Position numbers and translations under genes: made by a program. The notes under the pieces were generated by a model, which made no database searches, had not been told where the DNA came from, and saw only the letters and a list, made by a program, of their open reading frames with translations. From positions 67,477 to 131,476 of the forward strand of contig WRDR01000002.1 in assembly GCA_009779745.1 (NCBI GenBank): a DNA stretch of 64,000 nucleotides, given 5' to 3'. Shown here piece by piece: positions 3,227-62,225 of this stretch (position 1 is its first letter; each line of letters opens with the position of its first letter). Origin of the DNA: Alphaproteobacteria bacterium. GTDB lineage: Bacteria > Pseudomonadota > Alphaproteobacteria > UBA9219.

Positions 3227-3262
3227 ATGTGAAATGTGGAGTGTGGAGTGTGAAATTGGGAA
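3227..3262. repeat. Purine-tract half element (gtgaaatgtggagtgtggagtgtgaaattggg) in the divergent promoter region
   Basis: Same GTGGAGTG unit as the hairpin repeats at 14189, 17311, 21552, 24098 and 56075. No complementary arm is present here. Confidence 0.5.
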
Positions 3263-3312
3263 TATTAAAAAAATAATATTTATTTAGTAAAATTTATATA
3301 CTATAATGTGTT

Positions 3313-9509: not shown

Positions 9510-9616
9510 TGGAAAAGTGGAAAGTGGAAAGTTAAAATAGGAATATTTATAAGTAGTATTTCTCTGAAAATGGCTGTATAAATATTTCTACTTTCAACTT
9601 TTCACTTTTAACTTTC
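9509..9616. repeat. Hairpin repeat, GAAAGTG family. Arms tggaaaagtggaaagtggaaagttaaaat / ctactttcaacttttcacttttaactttc with a ~50-nt loop.
   Basis: Complementary purine and pyrimidine arms read directly. Lies between phaR and the permease gene. Confidence 0.7.
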
Positions 9617-14188: not shown

Positions 14189-14263
14189 GAGTGTTGAGAG
14201 TGGAGTGTGGAGTTGGTACATATTCTTAACTCCAAACTCCACACTCCAAACTCCACACTTCCC
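14189..14263. repeat. Hairpin repeat, GTGGAGTG family. Arms gagtgttgagagtggagtgtggagtt / aactccaaactccacactccaaactccacacttccc. Loop ggtacatattctt.
   Basis: Read directly. Lies between rpmF and plsX. Confidence 0.8.
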
Positions 14264-15372: not shown

Positions 15373-16324
15373 AACTACATTTTTAAACTGCGGAGCGTAT
15401 TTGCCGGAAAATGCCGTGACTAATGCGGCGTTGATAGCAAAGCACGGGCTGGATAGTTCTGACGAGTGGGTGGAAAGACGCACAGGCATTAAGCAAAGGC
15501 ATATAGCCGGTGATAATGAAAAAACTTCTGATTTGGCAACCAGAGCCGCAGGCGAAGCGTTGCAAGCGTCAGGGCTTACTATAAAAGATATAGATGCGGT
15601 TATAGTTGCGACTACAACGCCGGACCTTGATTTGCCTGCAACGGCAGTAAAGGTACAGGTTAATCTTGGAATGAATCATGGCTTTGCATTTGATGTACAT
15701 GCCGTGTGTTCCGGATTCATATACGCTATAACTGTTGCGGATAATCTGATAAAAGCCGGACAGATTAAAAGGGCTGTTGTTATCGGCGCAGAAACCTTGT
15801 CAAGGATTGTGGATTTCACGGACAGGTCTACGTGCTTTCTGTTCGGAGACGGAGCCGGAGCCGTTATTCTTGAGGGCAAAGAAGGCGTGCATAATGACAA
15901 CAGAGATCAGGGCATCTTAGGATCTATTCTGCACTCGGACGGAAGATATTATGATGTCTTGAAGACTAACGAAAAACGCTTTATTGCAATGGACGGAAAA
16001 GAGGTGTTCCGCCACGCTATCGTGAATATGTCTTCCGTGATAGATGAATTGCTGGAAAAGACCGGACTTGCGGAGTCTGAAATAGACTGGCTGGTGCCTC
16101 ATCAGGCGAATGAGAGAATCATAGATAATGCTGCCAAGAAGCTGAAGCTGCCGGAGGAAAGAGTAGTAAAAACAATTTCTTTTCATGCGAACACTTCTGC
16201 GGCATCAATACCGCTGGCTCTCTGTCATGCTGTTAAGAGCGGAGAAATACAAAGAGGTCAGATTGTTCTTATGGACGCTATGGGCGCAGGCTTTACATGG
16301 GGCGCTGCTGCGGTGAGGTGGTAA
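15365..16324 (+). CDS. fabH: 3-oxoacyl-ACP synthase III (FabH). The start is taken at MIRTTFLN, which overlaps the plsX stop region.
   Basis: Catalytic Cys region AFDVHAVCSGFIYA. His/Asn region WLVPHQANERI ... GAGFTWGAA. Confidence 0.9.
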   Translation: MIRTTFLNCGAYLPENAVTNAALIAKHGLDSSDEWVERRTGIKQRHIAGDNEKTSDLATRAAGEALQASGLTIKDIDAVIVATTTPDLDLPATAVKVQVNLGMNHGFAFDVHAVCSGFIYAITVADNLIKAGQIKRAVVIGAETLSRIVDFTDRSTCFLFGDGAGAVILEGKEGVHNDNRDQGILGSILHSDGRYYDVLKTNEKRFIAMDGKEVFRHAIVNMSSVIDELLEKTGLAESEIDWLVPHQANERIIDNAAKKLKLPEERVVKTISFHANTSAASIPLALCHAVKSGEIQRGQIVLMDAMGAGFTWGAAAVRW

Positions 16325-16361
16325 AAGTGAAAAGTGGAAAGTGAAAATAATTTCACTTTCC
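16323..16361. repeat. Hairpin repeat, GAAAGTG family: aaaagtgaaaagtggaaagtgaaaat / atttcactttcc
   Basis: Lies between the convergent fabH and ispB. Confidence 0.65.
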
Positions 16362-17296: not shown

Positions 17297-17310
17297 GTCT
17301 GCGGACAGTA

Positions 17311-17398
17311 AAGTGTGGAGTGCGGAGTGTGGAGTGTGGAGTGCAGGAGGGGAGCAGCCTATTGTCATTACCAATTTCACACTTCACATTTCACATTG
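17311..17398. repeat. Hairpin repeat, GTGGAGTG family: aagtgtggagtgcggagtgtggagtgtggagtgcagg ... ccaatttcacacttcacatttcacattg
   Basis: Read directly. Overlaps the hemY-like stop codon and precedes the ispB start. Confidence 0.75.
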
Positions 17399-18701
17399 TT
17401 CTCAGTCTGTCGCTAATACCCGCACTTTGCCATATCATCGTGTTGAACTCATTGCAGACGCTGCAGTTAGGCTGCCACATCTCATGCGCTTGGTTGCAGC
17501 TTGTGCATATCCATGACGGGTCCGGCACTGCATCAGTCGCTTTGGTAAGCCATATCAATGCAGCTCTTTCATCATGCCTCTCTTCTCTCTCCAGTCTGGA
17601 CAGCATCTTGAAAACGCTTTTCGTAGCCTTGCCGCTGTTGATGCACAAAATTAAATTCCTTCTGGCCTCGCCCCAAATATCAGCGGCTATAGCTGCATCT
17701 GCTATTGCTATATGGCTTGCGTTGTCTTGAGGAGTTTCTTTGCATAATTTCTCTATCTGTTTAAAGCCTTCCAAAGGACTGTCCGCCAGACTCAGCATTA
17801 TCTTATATAACTGAGGGTGCGCACAGTCTTTCCAAGATCTCTCTATAATCTTTTTGGCAGCTCTGTAACGTTCGGAGGCAACTAAAACTTCGCACAACTG
17901 AATAACGGCCGGCGTCCAGTCCGGTCTCAGCCGTATTGCATGACGGGCAGCGTCTATGGAGGCATCAACTTCTCCGTGCGCAAGCTTTATTCTGGATATA
18001 GCTATGCTTAACGCAGCTCCTACTCTGGCAGCTTCTTCCTCGTTCATGATCTTGGAGTTTTCTACTATCTTGAGTTCTTTGGCAGCTCTTTCGTAGTCAT
18101 GATGTCTGATAGCACCCAGCATTTTCATTCTCGATAGCCAAGGAGCTCCGGGTCTTACGTGATAGTATTCGGAAACTACTCTGTCGACTTCGGGAAAGTT
18201 TTTTTTCTGCATGGCAATTTCTATGAGCCCGCGGTATCCCAAAGGAGCTGCTTCAGAGTCCTGAGCCAGCTTGCCGAAAATCTCTTTTGCAGTTTTGTTG
18301 TCAAAATTGGCGGAACAAGCTGTCGCCTGAATCCAGTTCGCCAGCATAGTATTATCAATATTTTTGCCCGCAGAAGCAGCCAGACTTTTCGCCTTGGCGC
18401 AGTCTCCGCAGAAAAGAGCAACCAACGCCTGAGAAAGGAGATTCTGTCCGTGATTCAGCTTGTCCAGTTTGCGTTTTGCCTGCCATAAAATAGGACCCCG
18501 TATCAGGAAAGAGAAAAAACGCAGAAGCAAATGCACTATAAGGGCAAAAAGAAATACCGCTATGATGCAAAATGCCAGGCTTATCTGAAACTCTTCCATA
18601 TCGTTCCAGACTATATTAACATAGCCGTGCTGTTCCGTGAGCCAAAAAATCACGACTGCAAGAACTGCAATCTGAACTATCCAACGTATAACACTCAGCA
18701 T
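17391..18701 (-). CDS. HemY_N-domain/TPR inner-membrane protein (HemY-like)
   Basis: Two N-terminal TM helices (IVQIAVLAVVIFWL, AFCIIAVFLFALIVHLLL) followed by a TPR-like alpha-helical region. Typical HemY_N architecture. Confidence 0.7.
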   Translation of the reverse strand: MLSVIRWIVQIAVLAVVIFWLTEQHGYVNIVWNDMEEFQISLAFCIIAVFLFALIVHLLLRFFSFLIRGPILWQAKRKLDKLNHGQNLLSQALVALFCGDCAKAKSLAASAGKNIDNTMLANWIQATACSANFDNKTAKEIFGKLAQDSEAAPLGYRGLIEIAMQKKNFPEVDRVVSEYYHVRPGAPWLSRMKMLGAIRHHDYERAAKELKIVENSKIMNEEEAARVGAALSIAISRIKLAHGEVDASIDAARHAIRLRPDWTPAVIQLCEVLVASERYRAAKKIIERSWKDCAHPQLYKIMLSLADSPLEGFKQIEKLCKETPQDNASHIAIADAAIAADIWGEARRNLILCINSGKATKSVFKMLSRLEREERHDERAALIWLTKATDAVPDPSWICTSCNQAHEMWQPNCSVCNEFNTMIWQSAGISDRLRTM

Positions 18702-20402: not shown

Positions 20403-21548
20403 ATGACTGTAAATATGAAAGAAACATTGATGACTATGAAGGCTCTCGCTGCTGACAACACCGAGCTGTCTCGTGTTCAGTTGGCAGGAATGCTCTTTGA
20501 TGTCTTTATCAGCCAGCGTGCTCACATAGGTGCTGCTGAAGAGAAAGAGATAAATGCGCTCATAGACCAGCTTATGGAAAACGCTCCTTATCACATAAGA
20601 GAGGAAATAGCCAGACGCTTTGCAGATGCTTACAGAATGCCCCGCCGCATAGCGATGAAGCTCATCTATGACAGCAAAGAGCTTGCTATGCCTATACTGA
20701 AAAATGTCGACAACTTAGATGATAAGGACCTTATCAGCATAATCAAGTCTGACGGGATAAAAGAAGACAAGCAGCAGTATGCCAAGGCAATAGCGGAACG
20801 CAAAGAGATAAGCGAAGCCGTAGTAGATGCCTTAGTCACGACCGGAGATGTCGAGGTAATAGAAGTTATAGTGAATAACTTAGGAGCGAAATTAAGTCCT
20901 AAGGCTGTGGTTGCTATTACCAGCATAGCCAGATACATGGAAGCTCTTCAGAAACCGCTGTTAGAACGCAGAGAGGCTACTACCGAAGTTGCGTTAAAAT
21001 TGTTCTGGTGGATAGAGCAGGATTTGCGCAGGTATGCTATCAGCAGGTTCTATTTGGTTTCAGAACAGATAGAAAGCTCGCTTGCGTCTACTATAAAAGA
21101 TTTTCTAAACGATCATGCGAACGAAAAGGACAATGATAAAGTAATGGAAGATCTTGCAAAGTGGATTTACGATCATAAGGCTATAACGCCTAAGGTCTTG
21201 CAGCAGGTTCTTCGCATGGGCTACTTTGGACTGTTCAAGAAGCTGTTTGCAAAGATGGCCGGGCTGTCACTAGACGTGATAAACGGGATTATAGAAGAAC
21301 CCGGCGGACGCGGCTTTGCAGCAGCCTGTAAGGCGAACAAGATCGACAAGGCTATATTCATATCCCTCCTGCTGCTTTCAAGAGGCGGCAGACAGGGAGA
21401 ACAGAATGTCAATCCCAGAGAAGTAGCCAGCGCACTTGCAGTGTTTGACGGATTGTCTATAGAAAAAGCAGCAGTCTTGCTGGCAAGCTGGAAGCTGAAT
21501 CCTTCGTACTTCAAGAAGACAGCGGAAACTAAGATTGTGAAAATGTAG
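20403..21548 (+). CDS. Conserved alphaproteobacterial hypothetical protein (DUF2336-like, alpha-helical)
   Basis: 381-aa all-helical protein. The family assignment is from memory of the size and composition of this alphaproteobacterial family, so it is tentative. Confidence 0.4.
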   Translation: MTVNMKETLMTMKALAADNTELSRVQLAGMLFDVFISQRAHIGAAEEKEINALIDQLMENAPYHIREEIARRFADAYRMPRRIAMKLIYDSKELAMPILKNVDNLDDKDLISIIKSDGIKEDKQQYAKAIAERKEISEAVVDALVTTGDVEVIEVIVNNLGAKLSPKAVVAITSIARYMEALQKPLLERREATTEVALKLFWWIEQDLRRYAISRFYLVSEQIESSLASTIKDFLNDHANEKDNDKVMEDLAKWIYDHKAITPKVLQQVLRMGYFGLFKKLFAKMAGLSLDVINGIIEEPGGRGFAAACKANKIDKAIFISLLLLSRGGRQGEQNVNPREVASALAVFDGLSIEKAAVLLASWKLNPSYFKKTAETKIVKM

Positions 21549-21551
21549 AAA

Positions 21552-21622
21552 AGTGTGGAGTGTGAAGTGTGGAGTTGATGCGTATTCTTAACTCCACACT
21601 TCACTCTCAACACTCCACACTT
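21552..21622. repeat. Hairpin repeat, GTGGAGTG family. Loop ggagttgatgcgtattcttaactcc.
   Basis: Arms aagtgtggagtgtgaagtgtggagtt / aactccacacttcactctcaacactccacactt. Confidence 0.8.
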
Positions 21623-24097: not shown

Positions 24098-24150
24098 AGT
24101 GTGGAGTGTTGAGAGTGGAGTGTGGAGTTAAGAATATGTACCAACTCCGC
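24098..24150. repeat. GTGGAGTG-family element in inverted orientation with a truncated second arm
   Basis: Core ggagttaagaatatgtaccaactcc is the exact reverse complement of core ggagttggtacatattcttaactcc at 14210-14234. Confidence 0.7.
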
Positions 24151-39757: not shown

Positions 39758-39950
39758 TAGTGTGGAGCTGCTGTCCCTCTGATTGTCATTCCTGCTTTCG
39801 CAAGAGTGACAAAAAATTATAAATAATTTTTTGTTAAAAACCACTGCCCCGTCTTTTCATTCGCCTGTCGGCGAATGAAAATCCACCCCTTCGCCAGCGA
39901 AGGGGAATACGTGTGCACAGCAACCTTCAACTCCACACTTCACCGCACCC
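39758..39950. repeat. Composite nested repeat. A split GTGGAG-family element (arm tagtgtggagctg ... arm caactccacacttcac) is interrupted by three GC-rich palindromes: tgtcattcctgctttcgcaagagtgaca, ttttcattcgcctgtcggcgaatgaaaa and ccccttcgccagcgaagggg.
   Basis: Read directly. The palindromes also encode the C-terminal ~30 aa of the plsC ORF. Confidence 0.6.
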
Positions 39951-40669
39951 ATTTTGACTAACCGTGCCGTTGCGGTTTCTATGGAGTCTTTCAGTCTTGC
40001 CATCATCTCCGCCTTAGAAAGGCCTATTGGAATAACAGGAAGAAATTCAACTGTTATGTGCCCTCGTTTTTTGAACAGCGTATTCTTAGACCATACCAAT
40101 CCGGAGTTAAGAGCTATCGGAACTATCGGGATATTCAGCTCTTGATACAAAGCGGCTACTCCCGCTTTATAGGGCTTTGATTCTCCAACACCGACTCTTG
40201 TACCCTCCGGAAAAATAAATACGGGACGGTTTTCGGCAACTGCTTTTCTTGCTCCTTCCAGCATTACCTGCACGGCAGTTTTTCCGGCTTTTCTGTCAAT
40301 AGGTATAGTGCCGGACTTTTTTATGTGCCAGCCTAAAATCGGAAGCCTCAATAACTCCTGTTTTACAACAATAGCAGGATCGTCTATGAGCAGATGAATT
40401 TTAAAAGTCTCCCACTCGGACGCATGTTTGCACGCAGCTATAAACGGAGGCGCAGGGACATTTTCTTTTCCCACAACAGAATAAGTAATGCCTCCTAAAT
40501 TAGCTTCTACCCATGCAACAGTACTAAGCCAAAAGTGTATTGCCTTTATCAGCACTTTCCGGGGAAATAATAAGACAACCATAAGCACTATGCTTAGTAT
40601 GATGTTAATGCCGTAGAAAATAGAATTAAACCACACAAAGCGGAAATATTTATTATCGAGTATATTCAT
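39857..40669 (-). CDS. plsC: 1-acyl-sn-glycerol-3-phosphate acyltransferase (PlsC-like)
   Basis: FPEGTR block. Acyltransferase fold. The C-terminal tail is repeat-encoded. Confidence 0.75.
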   Translation of the reverse strand: MNILDNKYFRFVWFNSIFYGINIILSIVLMVVLLFPRKVLIKAIHFWLSTVAWVEANLGGITYSVVGKENVPAPPFIAACKHASEWETFKIHLLIDDPAIVVKQELLRLPILGWHIKKSGTIPIDRKAGKTAVQVMLEGARKAVAENRPVFIFPEGTRVGVGESKPYKAGVAALYQELNIPIVPIALNSGLVWSKNTLFKKRGHITVEFLPVIPIGLSKAEMMARLKDSIETATARLVKMGAVKCGVEGCCAHVFPFAGEGVDFHSPTGE

Positions 40670-54929: not shown

Positions 54930-56068
54930 CTATACGTTTATTCCTGTTCTGGATATCCGCAGTCCTCTGTGGATAGAAATGGATAACAATAGTCCGTAAC
55001 CTATCAGGAAGGTCATCATAGCGGTTCCTCCGTATGAGACTAAGGGCAGAGGTATGCCTACGACCGGGATTAATCCGGAAATCATGGCTACGTTGATAAA
55101 CACGTATAAAAACATAGACATAGTTATCCCGAATGCCGCCAGTCTTCCGAACTGATTGCGGCAGGACAGCGCAACCATAGAGCCGTACAGTATTAATATA
55201 GCATACAGTCCCAAAAGGAATAATGCTCCTACCATTCCGAATTCTCAGATAAAACTACGAAAATAAAGTCCGTGTGTTTTTCCGGCAGAAACTGCAGCTG
55301 GCTTTGAGTGCCTTGTCCGAAGCCCCGTCCTGTCAAGCCTCCGGAACCCATGGCTATTTTTGACTGCAATATATTGTATCCATGACCCAGCGGATCTTTA
55401 TCAGGGTCAAGAAACGTGGCTATTCTCGCCTTTTGGTAATCATGAAGTTTTGTCCATGCTATAGGCAATGCGCAGAATATTACCAAAAACAATATTACAA
55501 ACTTCCACCACTTTACGCCTGCGGCAAAAAAAATGGCTCCGCTTACCGCCAGCAATATCAGTGCTGTTCCGAGGTTAGGCTGTAAAAGCACTAATGCGGC
55601 GGGAACCAGCGCTATAATAGTCGGCGGCAGCAGTTTAAACGGGTTGGCTATCTCATTCAAAGAAAGCTCGTGGAAATACTTTGAGAGCATCAATATAAGT
55701 GCGATTTTCATAAGTTCGGACGGCTGTATGACCAGGAATCCCAGATTTATCCACCTTTGGGCACCCATTCCTATGTGTCCCATAATTTCTACTGCGATAA
55801 GCAGTACTAAGACTATCCAATAAAACGGTACTGCAATCCTAAGCCATACTTTTATATCGGTTAACGCTATGCCTATCATAAGGCACATGCCTGCTCCGAA
55901 GCGAATCAGCTGCGGCAATGCCCACGGATACCAGTTCTTCCCTCCGGCAGAATACAAAAGAGCTATGCCTAATAATCCCATTATCAGGACGACAAAAACT
56001 ATTCCCCAGTTCAGGAGCTTCAGCTTGTCGGTCAGACTTAGATTTTCTTCTTTTATAAAATTGGACAT
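54930..56068 (-). pseudogene. rodA: SEDS-family peptidoglycan polymerase RodA/FtsW interrupted by a -1 frameshift near 55240-55246. It is split into 293-aa and 101-aa ORFs.
   Basis: N-terminal part ends ...[15 protein letters not shown]. The other frame continues [14 protein letters not shown]...PLPLVSYGGTAM. Restoring one base in gagaattcgg gives the canonical ...[12 protein letters not shown].... Confidence 0.6.
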
Positions 56069-56074
56069 TATTAT

Positions 56075-56200
56075 TAGTGTGAAGTGTGGAGTGTGGAATT
56101 TTATAGACAAATAGCATGAGGCATACTAGATTGCTCTTGTTTAAAAAGCAATTTTTTTATATTTGCTAACTCCACATTTCACACTCTACACTTCACACTA
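56075..56200. repeat. Hairpin repeat, GTGGAGTG family with a 67-nt spacer: tagtgtgaagtgtggagtgtggaatt ... aactccacatttcacactctacacttcacacta
   Basis: Read directly. Accounts for the artefactual [15 protein letters not shown]-terminal extension of the rodA ORF. Confidence 0.75.
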
Positions 56201-58536: not shown

Positions 58537-59448
58537 ATGATGAATTTTTACAAGGAGTACAGTATGTACGCTAAAAAATCAATACTTATCGCAGCACTGG
58601 CTTTTGTTCTTGTGCCTTGCTCTTACGCATCGGCGCAGGTGCCGGAATCCGCTCAGAAGAAATTTCAAGAAGCGGCTCCTGTTGAGGACTTCGGAGACGA
58701 TTCTCTGGCCTATGACGAGGCTAAATCTCATGAAGAATCCAAAATGCTGACCGAGGCTGCGCCGGCAGAGCCTGCCAGCGACTATGTCGCGGACGAGCCT
58801 TATACTATCTCCGATGTCTACATAGATCTCAAATCCATACCTGTTTCAAAGGCAAGAGATCAGGCTTTGATGCAGGCTCAAAGACTTGCATACAGAAGCC
58901 TCTGCCAGCGTTTTGCAGTCCAAGATAATTCCGATAAATTATCTGATGACGACATTGCAAATATTGTAAGAAGTTTTGAAATGCAGAAAGAACAGATTTC
59001 TGCTGCCCGCTACATAGGCGTTTTCAAAATCTCCTTCAAAGAAGAGGCTGCTAAAAAACATCTGTTCGACTCTAAAAATGTGTTTTCCGAGAGTGCGTCT
59101 AAGAGCGGTTTTCAGGCTCCGGAACCCTTAAATAAACCGGAAGAAGCTGTTTTATATACTCCGGACTATATGAAGCATGAGAATAATGTGCCGCAGCATA
59201 CATCTATGTTTACCATAAAGGCTGATGTTGCAGCCGCTTCTTCAGAAGCATGGGGAAAGATACGGTCAAAAATATCCAGCATTCCGGCAGTAACAGATAT
59301 AAAAATGGAAGGTCTGGGCAACGGGATTGTGAAGATTAATCTGTCTTTCAACACCAGCATTCAGAACCTTGCTCAAATGCTCTCTGACAGAAACCTGCTG
59401 CTGCGGCAGGTTTCTTATGATGTTTACGAAATATATGAAATGGGCTGA
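58537..59448 (+). CDS. Secreted hypothetical protein (signal peptide, acidic N-terminal region)
   Basis: Signal peptide ...SYASA/QV. No motif recognised. Confidence 0.5.
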   Translation: MMNFYKEYSMYAKKSILIAALAFVLVPCSYASAQVPESAQKKFQEAAPVEDFGDDSLAYDEAKSHEESKMLTEAAPAEPASDYVADEPYTISDVYIDLKSIPVSKARDQALMQAQRLAYRSLCQRFAVQDNSDKLSDDDIANIVRSFEMQKEQISAARYIGVFKISFKEEAAKKHLFDSKNVFSESASKSGFQAPEPLNKPEEAVLYTPDYMKHENNVPQHTSMFTIKADVAAASSEAWGKIRSKISSIPAVTDIKMEGLGNGIVKINLSFNTSIQNLAQMLSDRNLLLRQVSYDVYEIYEMG

Positions 59449-59454
59449 TGAAAA

Positions 59455-60102
59455 GTGGAAATAGGTTCTTTAAAGCGCAAGAGAGTAAAAGCCTCTAAGA
59501 AACACTCGGCATCATCAAAACAATGGTTAGAGCGGCACCTCAACGATCCTTATGTAGCGGCAGCTCAACAGGCAGGATATCGCGCAAGGTCTGCTTTCAA
59601 ACTGTTGCAGCTGGACGAGAAGTTTCATTTTCTTCATAAGATCTCTCGGGTAGTGGATTTAGGTTCTGCTCCGGGAAGCTGGTCTCAGATTGCAAAAGAA
59701 AAGTGCGCATTCGTAGTTGCGTTGGATTTATTGCCTATGGAAGATATAGAAGGAGTAACATTTGTGCAGATGGATTTTACATCTGATGAGGCTCCTGAAA
59801 AGCTCAAGGATATACTGGCCGGAAAAGCTGATGTTGTTTTAAGCGATATGGCGCCTAATACTACAGGGCATTCCAATACTGACCATTTGCGTATAGTTGC
59901 GATTACGGAACTCGCCGCACAATTCGCTGTGGAAGTACTTAGAGAGGGAGGGACTTTTGTATGCAAGTTCTTTCAGGGCGGAGCGGAAAAGAGTATGCTG
60001 GATTTTTTGAAGCGTAATTTTAAGACTGTAAAACATGCAAAACCTAAAGCAAGCCGTTCGGAATCTGCGGAGTCGTATATTGTGGCGATGGGGTTTAGGA
60101 GA
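59455..60102 (+). CDS. rlmE: 23S rRNA (uridine2552-2'-O)-methyltransferase RlmE/FtsJ. No stop codon; the reading frame runs on into the next gene.
   Basis: RSAFKLLQLDEKF, VVDLGSAPGSWSQ, VLSDMAPNTTG and the catalytic K-D-K-E context. Homology ends at ...YIVAMGFRR, where the downstream signal peptide begins. Confidence 0.8.
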
Positions 60103-60126
60103 ATGTGGAATGTGAAATGTGGAATT
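60097..60126. repeat. Purine-tract half element aggagaatgtggaatgtgaaatgtggaatt at the rlmE/M48 junction
   Basis: Same GTGGA/GTGAA unit family. Contains an AGGAGA Shine-Dalgarno-like sequence plus ATG at 60103. Confidence 0.6.
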
Positions 60127-61503
60127 AAACCTCTTTTAGCTATACTGCTTTTCTGCTGTGCATTTATTATGACAAGCACTGCACTGGCGCAAAGCAGAAT
60201 GATGCTTATACGAGACCAGGAGATAGAGAACTATCTTAAGACTCTTTCATACCCTATTTTCAGAGCCGCGAATTTAGAGCCGAACAACATCAACATTTTC
60301 ATCATACAAGACCGCAACCCAAACGCTTTTGTAGCGGAAGGCATGAATCAGTTTTTTAATACCGGACTCTTGCAGCTTACGGAAACGCCTGAACAGCTTG
60401 CCGGCGTTATCGCACACGAAACCGGTCATATCTCGGGCGGGCATCTTATCCGCGGTAAAGAAGAGATGAACAATGCTTATAAGAAAAATATTATAGGCAC
60501 TATACTGGCAACCGCTGTAGGCGTAGCTTCCGGCAATCCCGGACTTGCGGCAGGAGGAGCATTGTTAAGCGGGCATGTGGCGGAAAGAAGTTTTTTGAAA
60601 TTTAACCGAGTACAAGAAGCATCTGCGGACTTGGCTGCGGCAAAGTATTTGGAGGCGGCCGGGATTTCGCAAAGAGGGCTTAGCGAATTTTTCCAGAAGC
60701 TCAAGGGACAGGAGTTTCTGCCGGAAGAACGCCAGATGGAGTATGTAAGAACCCACCCTCTCAACATGGACAGAATAGATGCCATAGATAATTATCTTAG
60801 TCTTTCTAAAACAAAAGATAATAAAATGTCTGAAGAGATTTACACTATGCACGAGAGAATGCGCGCAAAACTCTTAGGATATTTACAGCCTCAGGCTGCT
60901 CTTTTGCGTTACGGAGAAAAGGACGACAGAATAAGCGCAAGGTATGCAAGAACTTTTGCGCTGTACCGCACGGGCAAGACTGAACAAGCTCTGAAAAGCA
61001 TAGAGTCTCTTATCAAAGACGAGCCTGCCAATCCTTATTTTTACGAGCTCAAAGCTCAGATTAAATTCGAGAGCGGCAGAATAGAAGAAGCGATTGCTTC
61101 TTATCAGAAGCTGAATGAGTTATATCCTAATTCCGCACTATTCAAACAGGCGTATGCCAAGGCTCTTATAGAAAACAAGAACAAAGATAAAGAATTAAAG
61201 CGTCTTGAAAGAGCCGAGAAACTCTTGTTGGAAGCAAATGCTTTGGAGCCGGATTCTCCTTGGACATGGAGGCTCTTGGCAACATCATGGGGACGGCAAG
61301 CCGGATTTGCCAAGACAGAAAAACAGCATACTCTTTTGAAGGCACTTGCAACATATGCTCTTGCGGAAGAAGCTCTTGCTTTAGGCAATGAGAAAAACGC
61401 CGCACGTCTGGCAGAAAGAGCTATGAAGGATCTGGACAAAGGCTCTGCTTACTGGCTGAGAGCGCAGGACATTTCTTTGATAAGTGTTGAGAGTGAAAAG
61501 TGA
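60103..61503 (+). CDS. M48-family zinc metallopeptidase with TPR repeats (BepA/YcaL-like), periplasmic
   Basis: Signal peptide MWNVKCGIKPLLAILLFCCAFIMTSTALA/QS. HETGHISGGH (HExxH) and the downstream Glu (ASADLAAAKYLE). C-terminal TPR-like helices. Confidence 0.8.
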   Translation: MWNVKCGIKPLLAILLFCCAFIMTSTALAQSRMMLIRDQEIENYLKTLSYPIFRAANLEPNNINIFIIQDRNPNAFVAEGMNQFFNTGLLQLTETPEQLAGVIAHETGHISGGHLIRGKEEMNNAYKKNIIGTILATAVGVASGNPGLAAGGALLSGHVAERSFLKFNRVQEASADLAAAKYLEAAGISQRGLSEFFQKLKGQEFLPEERQMEYVRTHPLNMDRIDAIDNYLSLSKTKDNKMSEEIYTMHERMRAKLLGYLQPQAALLRYGEKDDRISARYARTFALYRTGKTEQALKSIESLIKDEPANPYFYELKAQIKFESGRIEEAIASYQKLNELYPNSALFKQAYAKALIENKNKDKELKRLERAEKLLLEANALEPDSPWTWRLLATSWGRQAGFAKTEKQHTLLKALATYALAEEALALGNEKNAARLAERAMKDLDKGSAYWLRAQDISLISVESEK

Positions 61504-61535
61504 AAGGTGGAATTATTTTAACTTTTCACATTCCC
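61484..61535. repeat. Hairpin repeat, GAAAGTG family: gtgttgagagtgaaaagtgaaaggtggaatt ... aacttttcacattccc
   Basis: Provides the stop codon of the M48 gene (..ISVESEK*) and overlaps the ATP12 gene end. Confidence 0.65.
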
Positions 61536-62225
61536 AAACCACTTATCACAAATAACAAGGTCTTTCATAAGTTCCCGATGCTTTTTTCTTAGCTCCAAAT
61601 CTTCCCCCCAGTGCTTTGCCTGCCATAACTCTTCCAAAGCACTTAATTCTAGGGCTTTTTCCGGAGTCAGCTCACCCTCCAAAAGCATAAGAGATATAAG
61701 CAGCGAATCCGTATCCGATACTGCCTGAGAAATACCGCTGAGTAAAAAAGGCTCTATGTTCAAAAGATACTGTTTCAGTTTTTCTTTTACAGCCTCACTT
61801 TGTTCAATGAAAAATATGCTGTCTTTTATTATGAGTTTCGTTTCAAATTTTTTAGAAAACCACTCGACAACAGGATTCCAATTTTCATTCTCTAACTTTT
61901 GCAGCTCATGATTAGTACCGGTTCTGTAACACACAATGTCCGTGTCTATCTTGGAAACTATCTCATCTATAATCTCGTTCTTGCGTTCCGAGACCACATC
62001 TATAGCTGCCATAGCCAGCCGCATCATCGGCATTTTCACAAGAGCGTTTTTATAATCCTGCGCAGTTTTTATAGTCTTACAATTTTCCGATAACTCTTCC
62101 GTAATCATCTCTGCCAAACCATGAGACGGCACTATCAACTCTTTTCCCGCAGGCGTTTTTATAACCGCATCATTTCTTAGAATGCTGAAACCATTCTCCG
62201 CTTGTTTTATACTGAAACTGTTCAT
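61518..62225 (-). CDS. ATP12-family F1-ATPase assembly chaperone
   Basis: ATP12 family blocks (..LRNDAVIKTPAGKEL..P..LA.....E). 235 aa. Confidence 0.7.
   Translation of the reverse strand: MNSFSIKQAENGFSILRNDAVIKTPAGKELIVPSHGLAEMITEELSENCKTIKTAQDYKNALVKMPMMRLAMAAIDVVSERKNEIIDEIVSKIDTDIVCYRTGTNHELQKLENENWNPVVEWFSKKFETKLIIKDSIFFIEQSEAVKEKLKQYLLNIEPFLLSGISQAVSDTDSLLISLMLLEGELTPEKALELSALEELWQAKHWGEDLELRKKHRELMKDLVICDKWFGNVKS

Follow-up and report, generated by a model that had tools for sequence, protein, structure and literature searches.

We found that, in the 64,000 nucleotides (nt) of alphaproteobacterial DNA analysed here (the window; positions 67,477 to 131,476 of contig WRDR01000002.1, assembly GCA_009779745.1), the gene for the rRNA methyltransferase RlmE runs without a stop codon into the gene for a BepA-like M48 metalloprotease, and that the two meet at a short tract belonging to a family of heptamer repeats. 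This state of the DNA is absent from all relatives found, homology to the sister lineage breaks at the tract, and both halves of the gene are intact. We conclude, with a probability of roughly 0.55, that this is a real, lineage-specific in-frame fusion at a heptamer tract, whose products would arise by processing of a precursor, by internal initiation, or by both.

The fused gene is a single open reading frame (ORF) of 682 codons at 59455-61503 on the plus strand, with no in-frame stop. Its translation bears out an earlier reading of the same DNA (the original prediction), in which rlmE passed into an M48 peptidase gene without a stop. A complete RlmE/FtsJ domain takes up residues 14-215. The FtsJ profile of Pfam (PF01728) matches residues 42-214 over its whole length (positions 1-181 of 181; E = 8e-55), and Peptidase_M48 (PF01435) matches residues 261-446 (E = 4e-25), followed by TPR repeats, with Pfam matches to TPR_14, TPR_16, TPR_19 and other TPR profiles spanning residues 489-640. 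Homology to RlmE stops at ...YIVAMGFRR (residue 216), and codon 217 is the ATG at 60103-60105; a signal peptide and an M48 protease with its HExxH motif come next, and the domain and motif coordinates place each of these where the original prediction had put them. The usual free-standing RlmE of ~210-250 residues is not encoded here: without a stop, the frame runs 466 codons further, and the computed mass of the whole 682-residue polypeptide is 76.5 kDa.

The rlmE part (residues 1-216; 59455-60102, plus strand), of the 23S rRNA U2552 2'-O-methyltransferase family, is complete as judged by Pfam, NCBIfam, structure alignment and motifs. Two NCBIfam RlmE models cover it nearly whole (TIGR00438, positions 1-188 of 188; NF008390, positions 3-208 of 209), at scores below their equivalog cut-offs (188 and 184 bits versus 300 and 269). 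The N-terminal part of the fused protein aligns with the structures of human MRM2 (7O9K) and Escherichia coli FtsJ (1EIZ) up to residue 214-216. The S-adenosylmethionine (SAM) motif DLGSAPGSWSQ is present, as are the K, D, K and E positions (K in AFKLL, D in SDMAP, K in VCKFF, E in SAESY) that we take, from established knowledge of FtsJ, to be the catalytic tetrad; the SAM motif and the tetrad are conserved in the alignment to MRM2. Against the sister lineage described below, the ratio of nonsynonymous to synonymous substitution rates (dN/dS) is 0.045 (dS ~1). Membership of the RlmE/FtsJ family is clear, and exact equivalence of the substrate, U2552, is presumed. This half resembles known RlmE (FtsJ/RrmJ) in its whole profile, SAM motif, K-D-K-E positions and an end at GF plus two residues as in relatives; it differs in having no stop, in continuing into a signal peptide and a protease, and in scoring under the equivalog cut-off.

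The mature protease with its TPR domain occupies 60190-61503 (plus strand; Pfam, NCBIfam and PDB alignment), including the TGA stop at 61501-61503. HETGH lies at residues 321-325, the third zinc ligand is found in QEASAD (aligned to EQEAD of BepA), and THPL is present. The NCBIfam BepA model matches over positions 57-449 of 483, with 137 bits against an equivalog cut-off of 570, and the protease half aligns with the BepA structures 6AIT and 6SAR up to residue 346 of the protease part. Its dN/dS against the sister is 0.145 (dS ~1), and by these two values both halves have evolved under purifying selection. BepA is a periplasmic M48 protease with a TPR domain that helps β-barrel assembly. The protease half shares with BepA (YfgC) the M48 domain with HExxH, a downstream Glu ligand, the THP motif, C-terminal TPRs and a Sec signal peptide that ends in an AXA site; it is a distant relation, its signal peptide lies internally behind 216 residues of a cytoplasmic enzyme, and its last eight codons derive from a repeat.

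The canonical signal peptide of the protease is present but internal in the ORF. It comprises residues 217-245 (MWNVKCGIKPLLAILLFCCAFIMTSTALA; 60103-60189, plus strand) and holds the one strongly hydrophobic stretch in the entire protein (Kyte-Doolittle mean of 2.59 over 15 residues). It consists of an n-region, MWNVKCGIK, encoded by the heptamer tract, an h-region, PLLAILLFCCAFIM, and a c-region, TSTALA, with Lys/Arg N-terminal to a 14-residue hydrophobic core and an AXA site (A-L-A) just before QS; cleavage is predicted at ALA/QS, after residue 245. All 114 homologue N-termini compared carry a signal peptide ending A-x-A/Q, like the internal one. Full profile coverage, motifs, low dN/dS and this family-typical signal peptide make both halves look functional. 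In the NCBI annotation the protease appears as a 433-residue M48 protein starting at Met250, without a signal peptide (MCL2473339.1 and MCL2504965.1; 60349-61503 of the window), and localisation predictions made from these entries would be wrong, since the signal peptide is cut away.

The exact 682-residue product occurs on five contigs, and in the three of these that were retrieved (Logan assemblies of SRR10512951, SRR5215144 and SRR10512950) the junction is 100% identical to that of the window. The assembly check that the original prediction had called for thus finds the same sequence in four assemblies. The fused protein is also recorded in JGI, ENA and GEM sources, and all fusion copies are at least 99.99% identical. 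Between the window and one of the retrieved contigs, L001, the only difference is a 1-nt indel at 55246, so that indel differences between these assemblies are detectable, and there is none at the junction. A sequencing or assembly artefact, with a stop or a 1-nt frame difference in the real genome, is consequently extremely unlikely. That indel does indicate that errors or variants of this kind occur in such assemblies, and the NCBI pipeline called the 433-residue protein instead of the fused one; against this stand the identity of the junction across three sequencing runs, the further database records and a junction sequence that is not a homopolymer.

To place the fusion among its relatives, we compared the locus across related genomes and contigs. 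The 90% cluster of the fused protein includes a stand-alone RlmE of 232 residues (P0123), encoded on sister contig L068 (ENA ERZ27245262) in the same synteny, purN-purM-unknown-rlmE. There, rlmE ends GGG TTT AGA GGA TAA (GFRG, then stop), and no tract is present. In six more distant relatives the protease is 58-63% identical to that of the window; rlmE lies directly 5' of it in L005, L095, L096, L097 and the P0003 contig, and one gene stands between them in L006. The rlmE TGA overlaps the protease GTG as GTGA in L005, L095 and L096. In all readable relatives (L005, L095, L096, L097 and L068) RlmE ends in a conserved GF plus two codons (GFHP, GFKK, GFKR, GFRK or GFRG), and the stop follows at the position held in the window by the ATG of codon 217.

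The fusion was found in none of 60 GTDB species-representative genomes retrieved with the query, in which every rlmE has a stop. Among 629 significant homologues the fused architecture occurs only in the query's own cluster, and when 1.84 billion representative proteins were searched exhaustively with phmmer, the best 150 matches each covered one half only. A scan of metagenome contigs brought up no close strain, its RlmE homologues being no more than 60% identical, and a scan of GTDB genomes nothing closer than about 65%. Several tblastn matches seemed to pass residue 216 (L011, L012, L038, L056 and others); tracing of the frames placed a stop after every rlmE, and no M48 gene was found within 3 kb of rlmE in these relatives. 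Because the relatives have stops and carry rlmE just 5' of the protease, the sequences compared indicate that the fusion is confined to this lineage and that the ancestral state in this alphaproteobacterial group is an adjacent, tightly coupled rlmE and protease. An in-frame junction without the repeat, which would have spoken against the original prediction, occurs in none of the relatives found.

The arrangement in the sister is itself probably altered. The 3' flank of rlmE in L068 (5805-6491) holds the N-terminal half of an AAA_14 ATPase gene, and L004 (2-337), from the same assembly, holds a DUF4143 C-terminal fragment followed by the closest protease homologue (77% identity). No sequence overlap between L068 and L004 was found. 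It is plausible that they carry one AAA_14-DUF4143 gene, in which case the sister order is probably rlmE, ATPase gene, protease. The AAA_14/DUF4143 gene is absent from the window and from the six more distant relatives, and is probably an insertion in the sister.

The junction tract (60098-60125, plus strand) consists of GGAGAAT GTGGAAT GTGAAAT GTGGAAT and encodes ...RR MWNVKCGI. The original prediction had taken it for a half-element of a repeat, and family statistics and the break in homology agree: it is a single-arm member of a family of (GTGRARW)n tracts, of which the window holds 15, compared with none in 30 shuffles (unit GTGRARD, at least 19 of 21 matches, at least three units). The junction 21-mer has six matches in the window at no more than three mismatches, where 0.01 are expected, and a looser two-unit pattern has 16 matches in the window versus 4 in 577 kb of related loci. 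Heptamer tract sites lie at 3229-3263, 9510-9612, 14193-14263, 16320-16347, 17308-17394, 21548-21618, 24101-24128, 56079-56196, 60098-60125 and 61486-61534. Many tracts are inverted pairs with strong hairpins (z of -4.2 to -8.4), which are full palindromic copies; the junction tract, a single arm, does not fold (z 0.02 versus shuffles).

The family has a habit of lying on stop codons. Six tracts start 0-7 nt from a same-strand stop, and several supply it, as in the gene at 17391-18701 on the minus strand (...ATG TGA AATGTGAAG), in the gene at 20403-21548 (...ATG TAG AAAAGTGTGG) and in the protease gene itself (...GAA AAG TGA AAGGTGG). In the last case a full palindromic element between convergent genes (61478-61545, strand not assigned; hairpin of -23.3 kcal/mol, z -4.2) supplies the last ~8 protease codons and the TGA, so that the protein ends ...DISLISVESEK and a stop, compared with ...DISLLKPENDSK and a stop in the sister. 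Besides the protease stop, the family overlaps or abuts five others, which, with the acyltransferase described next, accords with the view of the original prediction that these repeats lie at gene boundaries and remodel them. The junction tract is the only one deep within an ORF, a dispersed repeat translated together with its host frame.

Two further features of the family touch these genes. The arm at 61493-61515 (23 nt) is an 87% direct repeat of the junction tract (60105-60127) and stands in both direct and inverted relation to 60105-60128, so that the body of the protease gene is bracketed by tract copies. An acyltransferase ORF (PF01553; 39857-40669, minus strand) has a C-terminal tail of ~30 residues ending ...ARLVKMGAVKCGVEGCCAHVFPFAGEGVDFHSPTGE and a stop (39857-39960), which runs across the tract at 39930-39943 and is read in the 'VKCG' frame also used where rlmE meets the protease; here a tract may have displaced a stop for a second time. 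At the 5' boundary of rlmE, too, tract length differs between lineages: its GTG start (59455) sits in a heptamer-like purine tract, GATGAAAAGTGGAAATAGG, and the same tract in sister contig L068 (4985-5035; window region 59440-59470) is 14-15 nt longer, GTGAAAAGTGGAAATAGGAAAGTGGAAATAGG.

The heptamer family looks like a REP-like (repetitive extragenic palindromic) or terminator-like element built from heptamers. Terminal inverted repeats or a target-site duplication are not evident at the junction tract, nor is a complementary partner nearby, and the tracts resemble tandem arrays of heptamers, not MITEs (miniature transposable elements with inverted repeats). Cyanobacteria carry STRR heptamers in intergenic tandem arrays. 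In Beggiatoaceae, tandem repeats of the heptanucleotide TAACTGA are intergenic (PMC4679880). The present family shares with both the short tandem arrays of heptamers at many intergenic sites per genome, whereas its unit differs (GTGRARW), its tracts are often inverted pairs with hairpins over stop codons, and its host is an alphaproteobacterium. In-frame fusions with host ORFs are known for Rickettsia palindromic elements and for other MITE- or REP-like repeats (review PMC10969869). The likeness to the Rickettsia elements lies in a short dispersed repeat within a reading frame, translated in frame and altering gene ends; those elements, however, are of ~150 bp and are inserted in single genes, whereas here a heptamer tract of 21-35 nt, usually placed at gene 3' ends, joins two genes.

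How the tract came to join these genes can be partly read from the junction. By BLAST, homology to the sister breaks off at 60098 (after GGGTTTAG), returns at 60139 (in L004) and ends again at 61479, and the breaks at 60098 and 61479 both coincide with heptamer tracts. In the +1 frame the junction tract reads GGA ATG TGA, the same ending as in the minus-strand gene at 17391-18701. This TGA (60113-60115) overlaps an in-frame GTG at 60112, an alternative protease start, as GTGA (60112-60115, plus strand), the type of stop/start overlap seen at the L005, L095 and L096 junctions. Relative to rlmE the tract TGA is displaced by one base, so that translation of rlmE carries on in the protease frame. 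We propose that the tract replaced the ancestral junction of rlmE stop and protease start and at one time supplied the rlmE stop, and that rlmE would then have entered the protease frame through an indel of net +1/-2 at the 5' edge of the tract (60097-60112). It is equally possible that the stop was lost directly at tract insertion: the sister junction comparison (AGAGGATAA versus AGGAGAATG) is too short and too different to distinguish a 2-nt deletion, a 1-nt insertion and a direct tract insertion. The idea in the original prediction that the insertion deleted the stop thus keeps its foundation, in that the tract coincides with the fusion and the sister has a stop there, and becomes just one of the routes, since the indel explains the junction equally well. 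A deletion between repeat arms flanking the ATPase gene of the sister was considered and is not supported, as the sister has no tract at either boundary of that gene.

Coupled operon pairs that overlap as ATGA or GTGA can be fused by small indels, and the relatives' GTGA is such an arrangement, in which a one-base change of register yields this kind of fusion; the genome of the window has many -4 and -1 gene overlaps. The difference is that here a repeat tract stands in place of the junction sequence. That a slight shift of register can fuse neighbouring, overlapping genes is well known, and both components belong, as ordinary members, to the RlmE/FtsJ and BepA-like families. What is unusual is that a signal peptide connects a cytoplasmic enzyme with an exported protease, that a heptamer tract forms the junction and that the repeat family habitually lies on stops.

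We then considered which products the fused gene may yield. No terminator-like or promoter-like site was found between the halves, which should therefore be co-transcribed, and folding of the junction RNA is no stronger than that of shuffled sequences. Translation begun at rlmE has to continue to 61503, which gives a polypeptide of the full mass. The original prediction had offered aberrant termination of RlmE as one outcome; this finds no basis in the junction, which lacks a stop, a terminator-like hairpin and any known shifty site, and where AGG and AGA are common codons. For internal initiation of the protease, purine-rich candidate ribosome-binding sites lie within the 3' end of rlmE (60090-60101, plus strand; sequence, spacing statistics and relatives). 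GGAG-to-start spacing in window genes is 5-8 nt. AGGAG (60097-60101) lies 1 nt before ATG 60103, which is too close for it to serve as the Shine-Dalgarno sequence of that ATG as originally predicted, and 10 nt before GTG 60112; GGGG (60090-60093, a Gly codon) lies 9 nt before ATG 60103, and relatives have GGGG/AGGA-N8-GTG. Judged by spacing, GGGG for ATG 60103, or GTG 60112 after AGGAG, would be better candidates than the AGGAGA-ATG pair, and internal initiation appears possible and is not clearly favoured.

We suggest that the main product would be the 76.5-kDa precursor, whose internal signal peptide would insert in an N-in/C-out orientation and be cut by signal peptidase I after ALA245, to yield an RlmE of 27 kDa tethered to the membrane and, at 49 kDa, a normal protease in the periplasm. 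A share of the protease may, in addition, arise by separate initiation at ATG 60103 or GTG 60112, and both functions would probably be retained. In the Sec/SRP and signal peptidase I pathway, a hydrophobic segment with an AXA site that follows a cytoplasmic domain can be inserted in this orientation and then cleaved. The ~75-kDa fusion with a useless internal signal peptide, as the original prediction had it, was right as to the fused frame; the signal peptide is not necessarily useless: it is intact and could serve as a signal-anchor open to cleavage. Polyproteins resolved by signal peptidase are known from flaviviruses and other eukaryotic viruses and from engineered Lep constructs in E. coli. 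The fused protein has the same layout of cytoplasmic domain, hydrophobic segment with AXA site and translocated domain, with the difference that its cleavage is predicted. A literature search returned nothing relevant on RlmE fusions or bacterial internal signal peptides and no natural bacterial precedent. We tentatively raise the possibility of a functional, natural bacterial two-compartment polyprotein, made of a tethered rRNA methyltransferase and a periplasmic protease of outer-membrane biogenesis separated by signal peptidase I, and created by a heptamer repeat of this lineage that usually supplies stops.

Several points weigh against a functional fusion of this origin. Both cleavage at the internal signal peptide and the tethering of RlmE to the membrane are deduced from the protein's layout. 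Neither candidate internal start has the GGAG spacing typical of window genes. The near-identity of the fusion copies is compatible with a recent origin, so that upkeep by selection is not evident, and pairwise dN/dS mostly reflects the time before the fusion. As to origin, the ATPase gene between rlmE and protease in the sister means that the immediate pre-fusion junction is not kept and that insertion, indel or deletion could each have been the mutational path; and, as any GTGAAAT unit contains GTGA, finding that motif at the junction may be a coincidence.

Some of these points would also fit a recent, mildly deleterious mutation with pseudogenisation under way, in which the fused protein is misfolded, mislocalised or degraded, and RlmE, the protease or both are impaired and tolerated as non-essential. 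The architecture is unique to this lineage, its near-identical copies bear no sign of long persistence, the window's assembly has another frameshift, in rodA/ftsW, and heptamer tracts run into other gene ends too. Both rlmE and bepA are dispensable in E. coli. We nevertheless regard decay as the less likely account of the locus, for neither half is truncated, all catalytic motifs and the signal peptide are preserved, assemblies of at least three sequencing runs have the state fixed, and functional products could be reached through a cleavable signal peptide inside the ORF or through either of two plausible internal starts.

Two separate proteins could also be made by recoding, if a +1 frameshift near AGG AGA A brought ribosomes to the TGA at 60113-60115, followed by re-initiation at the overlapping GTG 60112. 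The GTGA geometry as in L005, L095 and L096, AGGAG placed 10 nt 5' of the GTG and the ATG TGA end of the gene at 17391-18701 within the same tract motif are what such a mechanism would use, but we consider it highly unlikely: there is no recognised shifty site and no stimulatory structure (z 0.02), AGA (22.5 per 1000) and AGG (7.3 per 1000) are common, so that no hungry-codon pause is expected, and GTGA is built into every GTGAAAT unit. Hardly any weight falls on a phase-variable switch, in which slippage by 7 nt (7 mod 3 = 1) toggles between fused and separate states. By hand translation, one heptamer fewer would give rlmE a TAG nine codons on and leave the in-frame GTG for the protease, yet the tract has only three imperfect units, its length is equal in four assemblies, and no length variants were found. 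An alternative genetic code was rejected, as each of TAA (20), TGA (15) and TAG (6) serves as a stop and AGA and AGG occur often as sense codons.

Elsewhere in the window, the 1-nt indel at 55246 affects an FtsW/RodA-family gene (~54930-56068, minus strand). Compared with the Logan contig L001 (AATTCT[T]CAG), which encodes an intact FtsW/RodA-family protein of 379 residues, the window lacks one base; in the window the frame breaks at ...VVLSENSEW and a stop, and goes on in another frame. The break is either a strain-level frameshift or an assembly error.

For annotation, a call of the 682-residue chimera and a call of the 433-residue protein would each mislead predictions of function and localisation. 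For the biology of this lineage, the locus is a concrete case of how a lineage-specific family of short repeats that lies on stop codons can rewrite gene boundaries, here by merging two translationally coupled operon genes whose products belong to different cell compartments. If the precursor is indeed processed at its internal signal peptide, the fused protein would be a rare natural example of a bacterial polyprotein resolved by signal peptidase.

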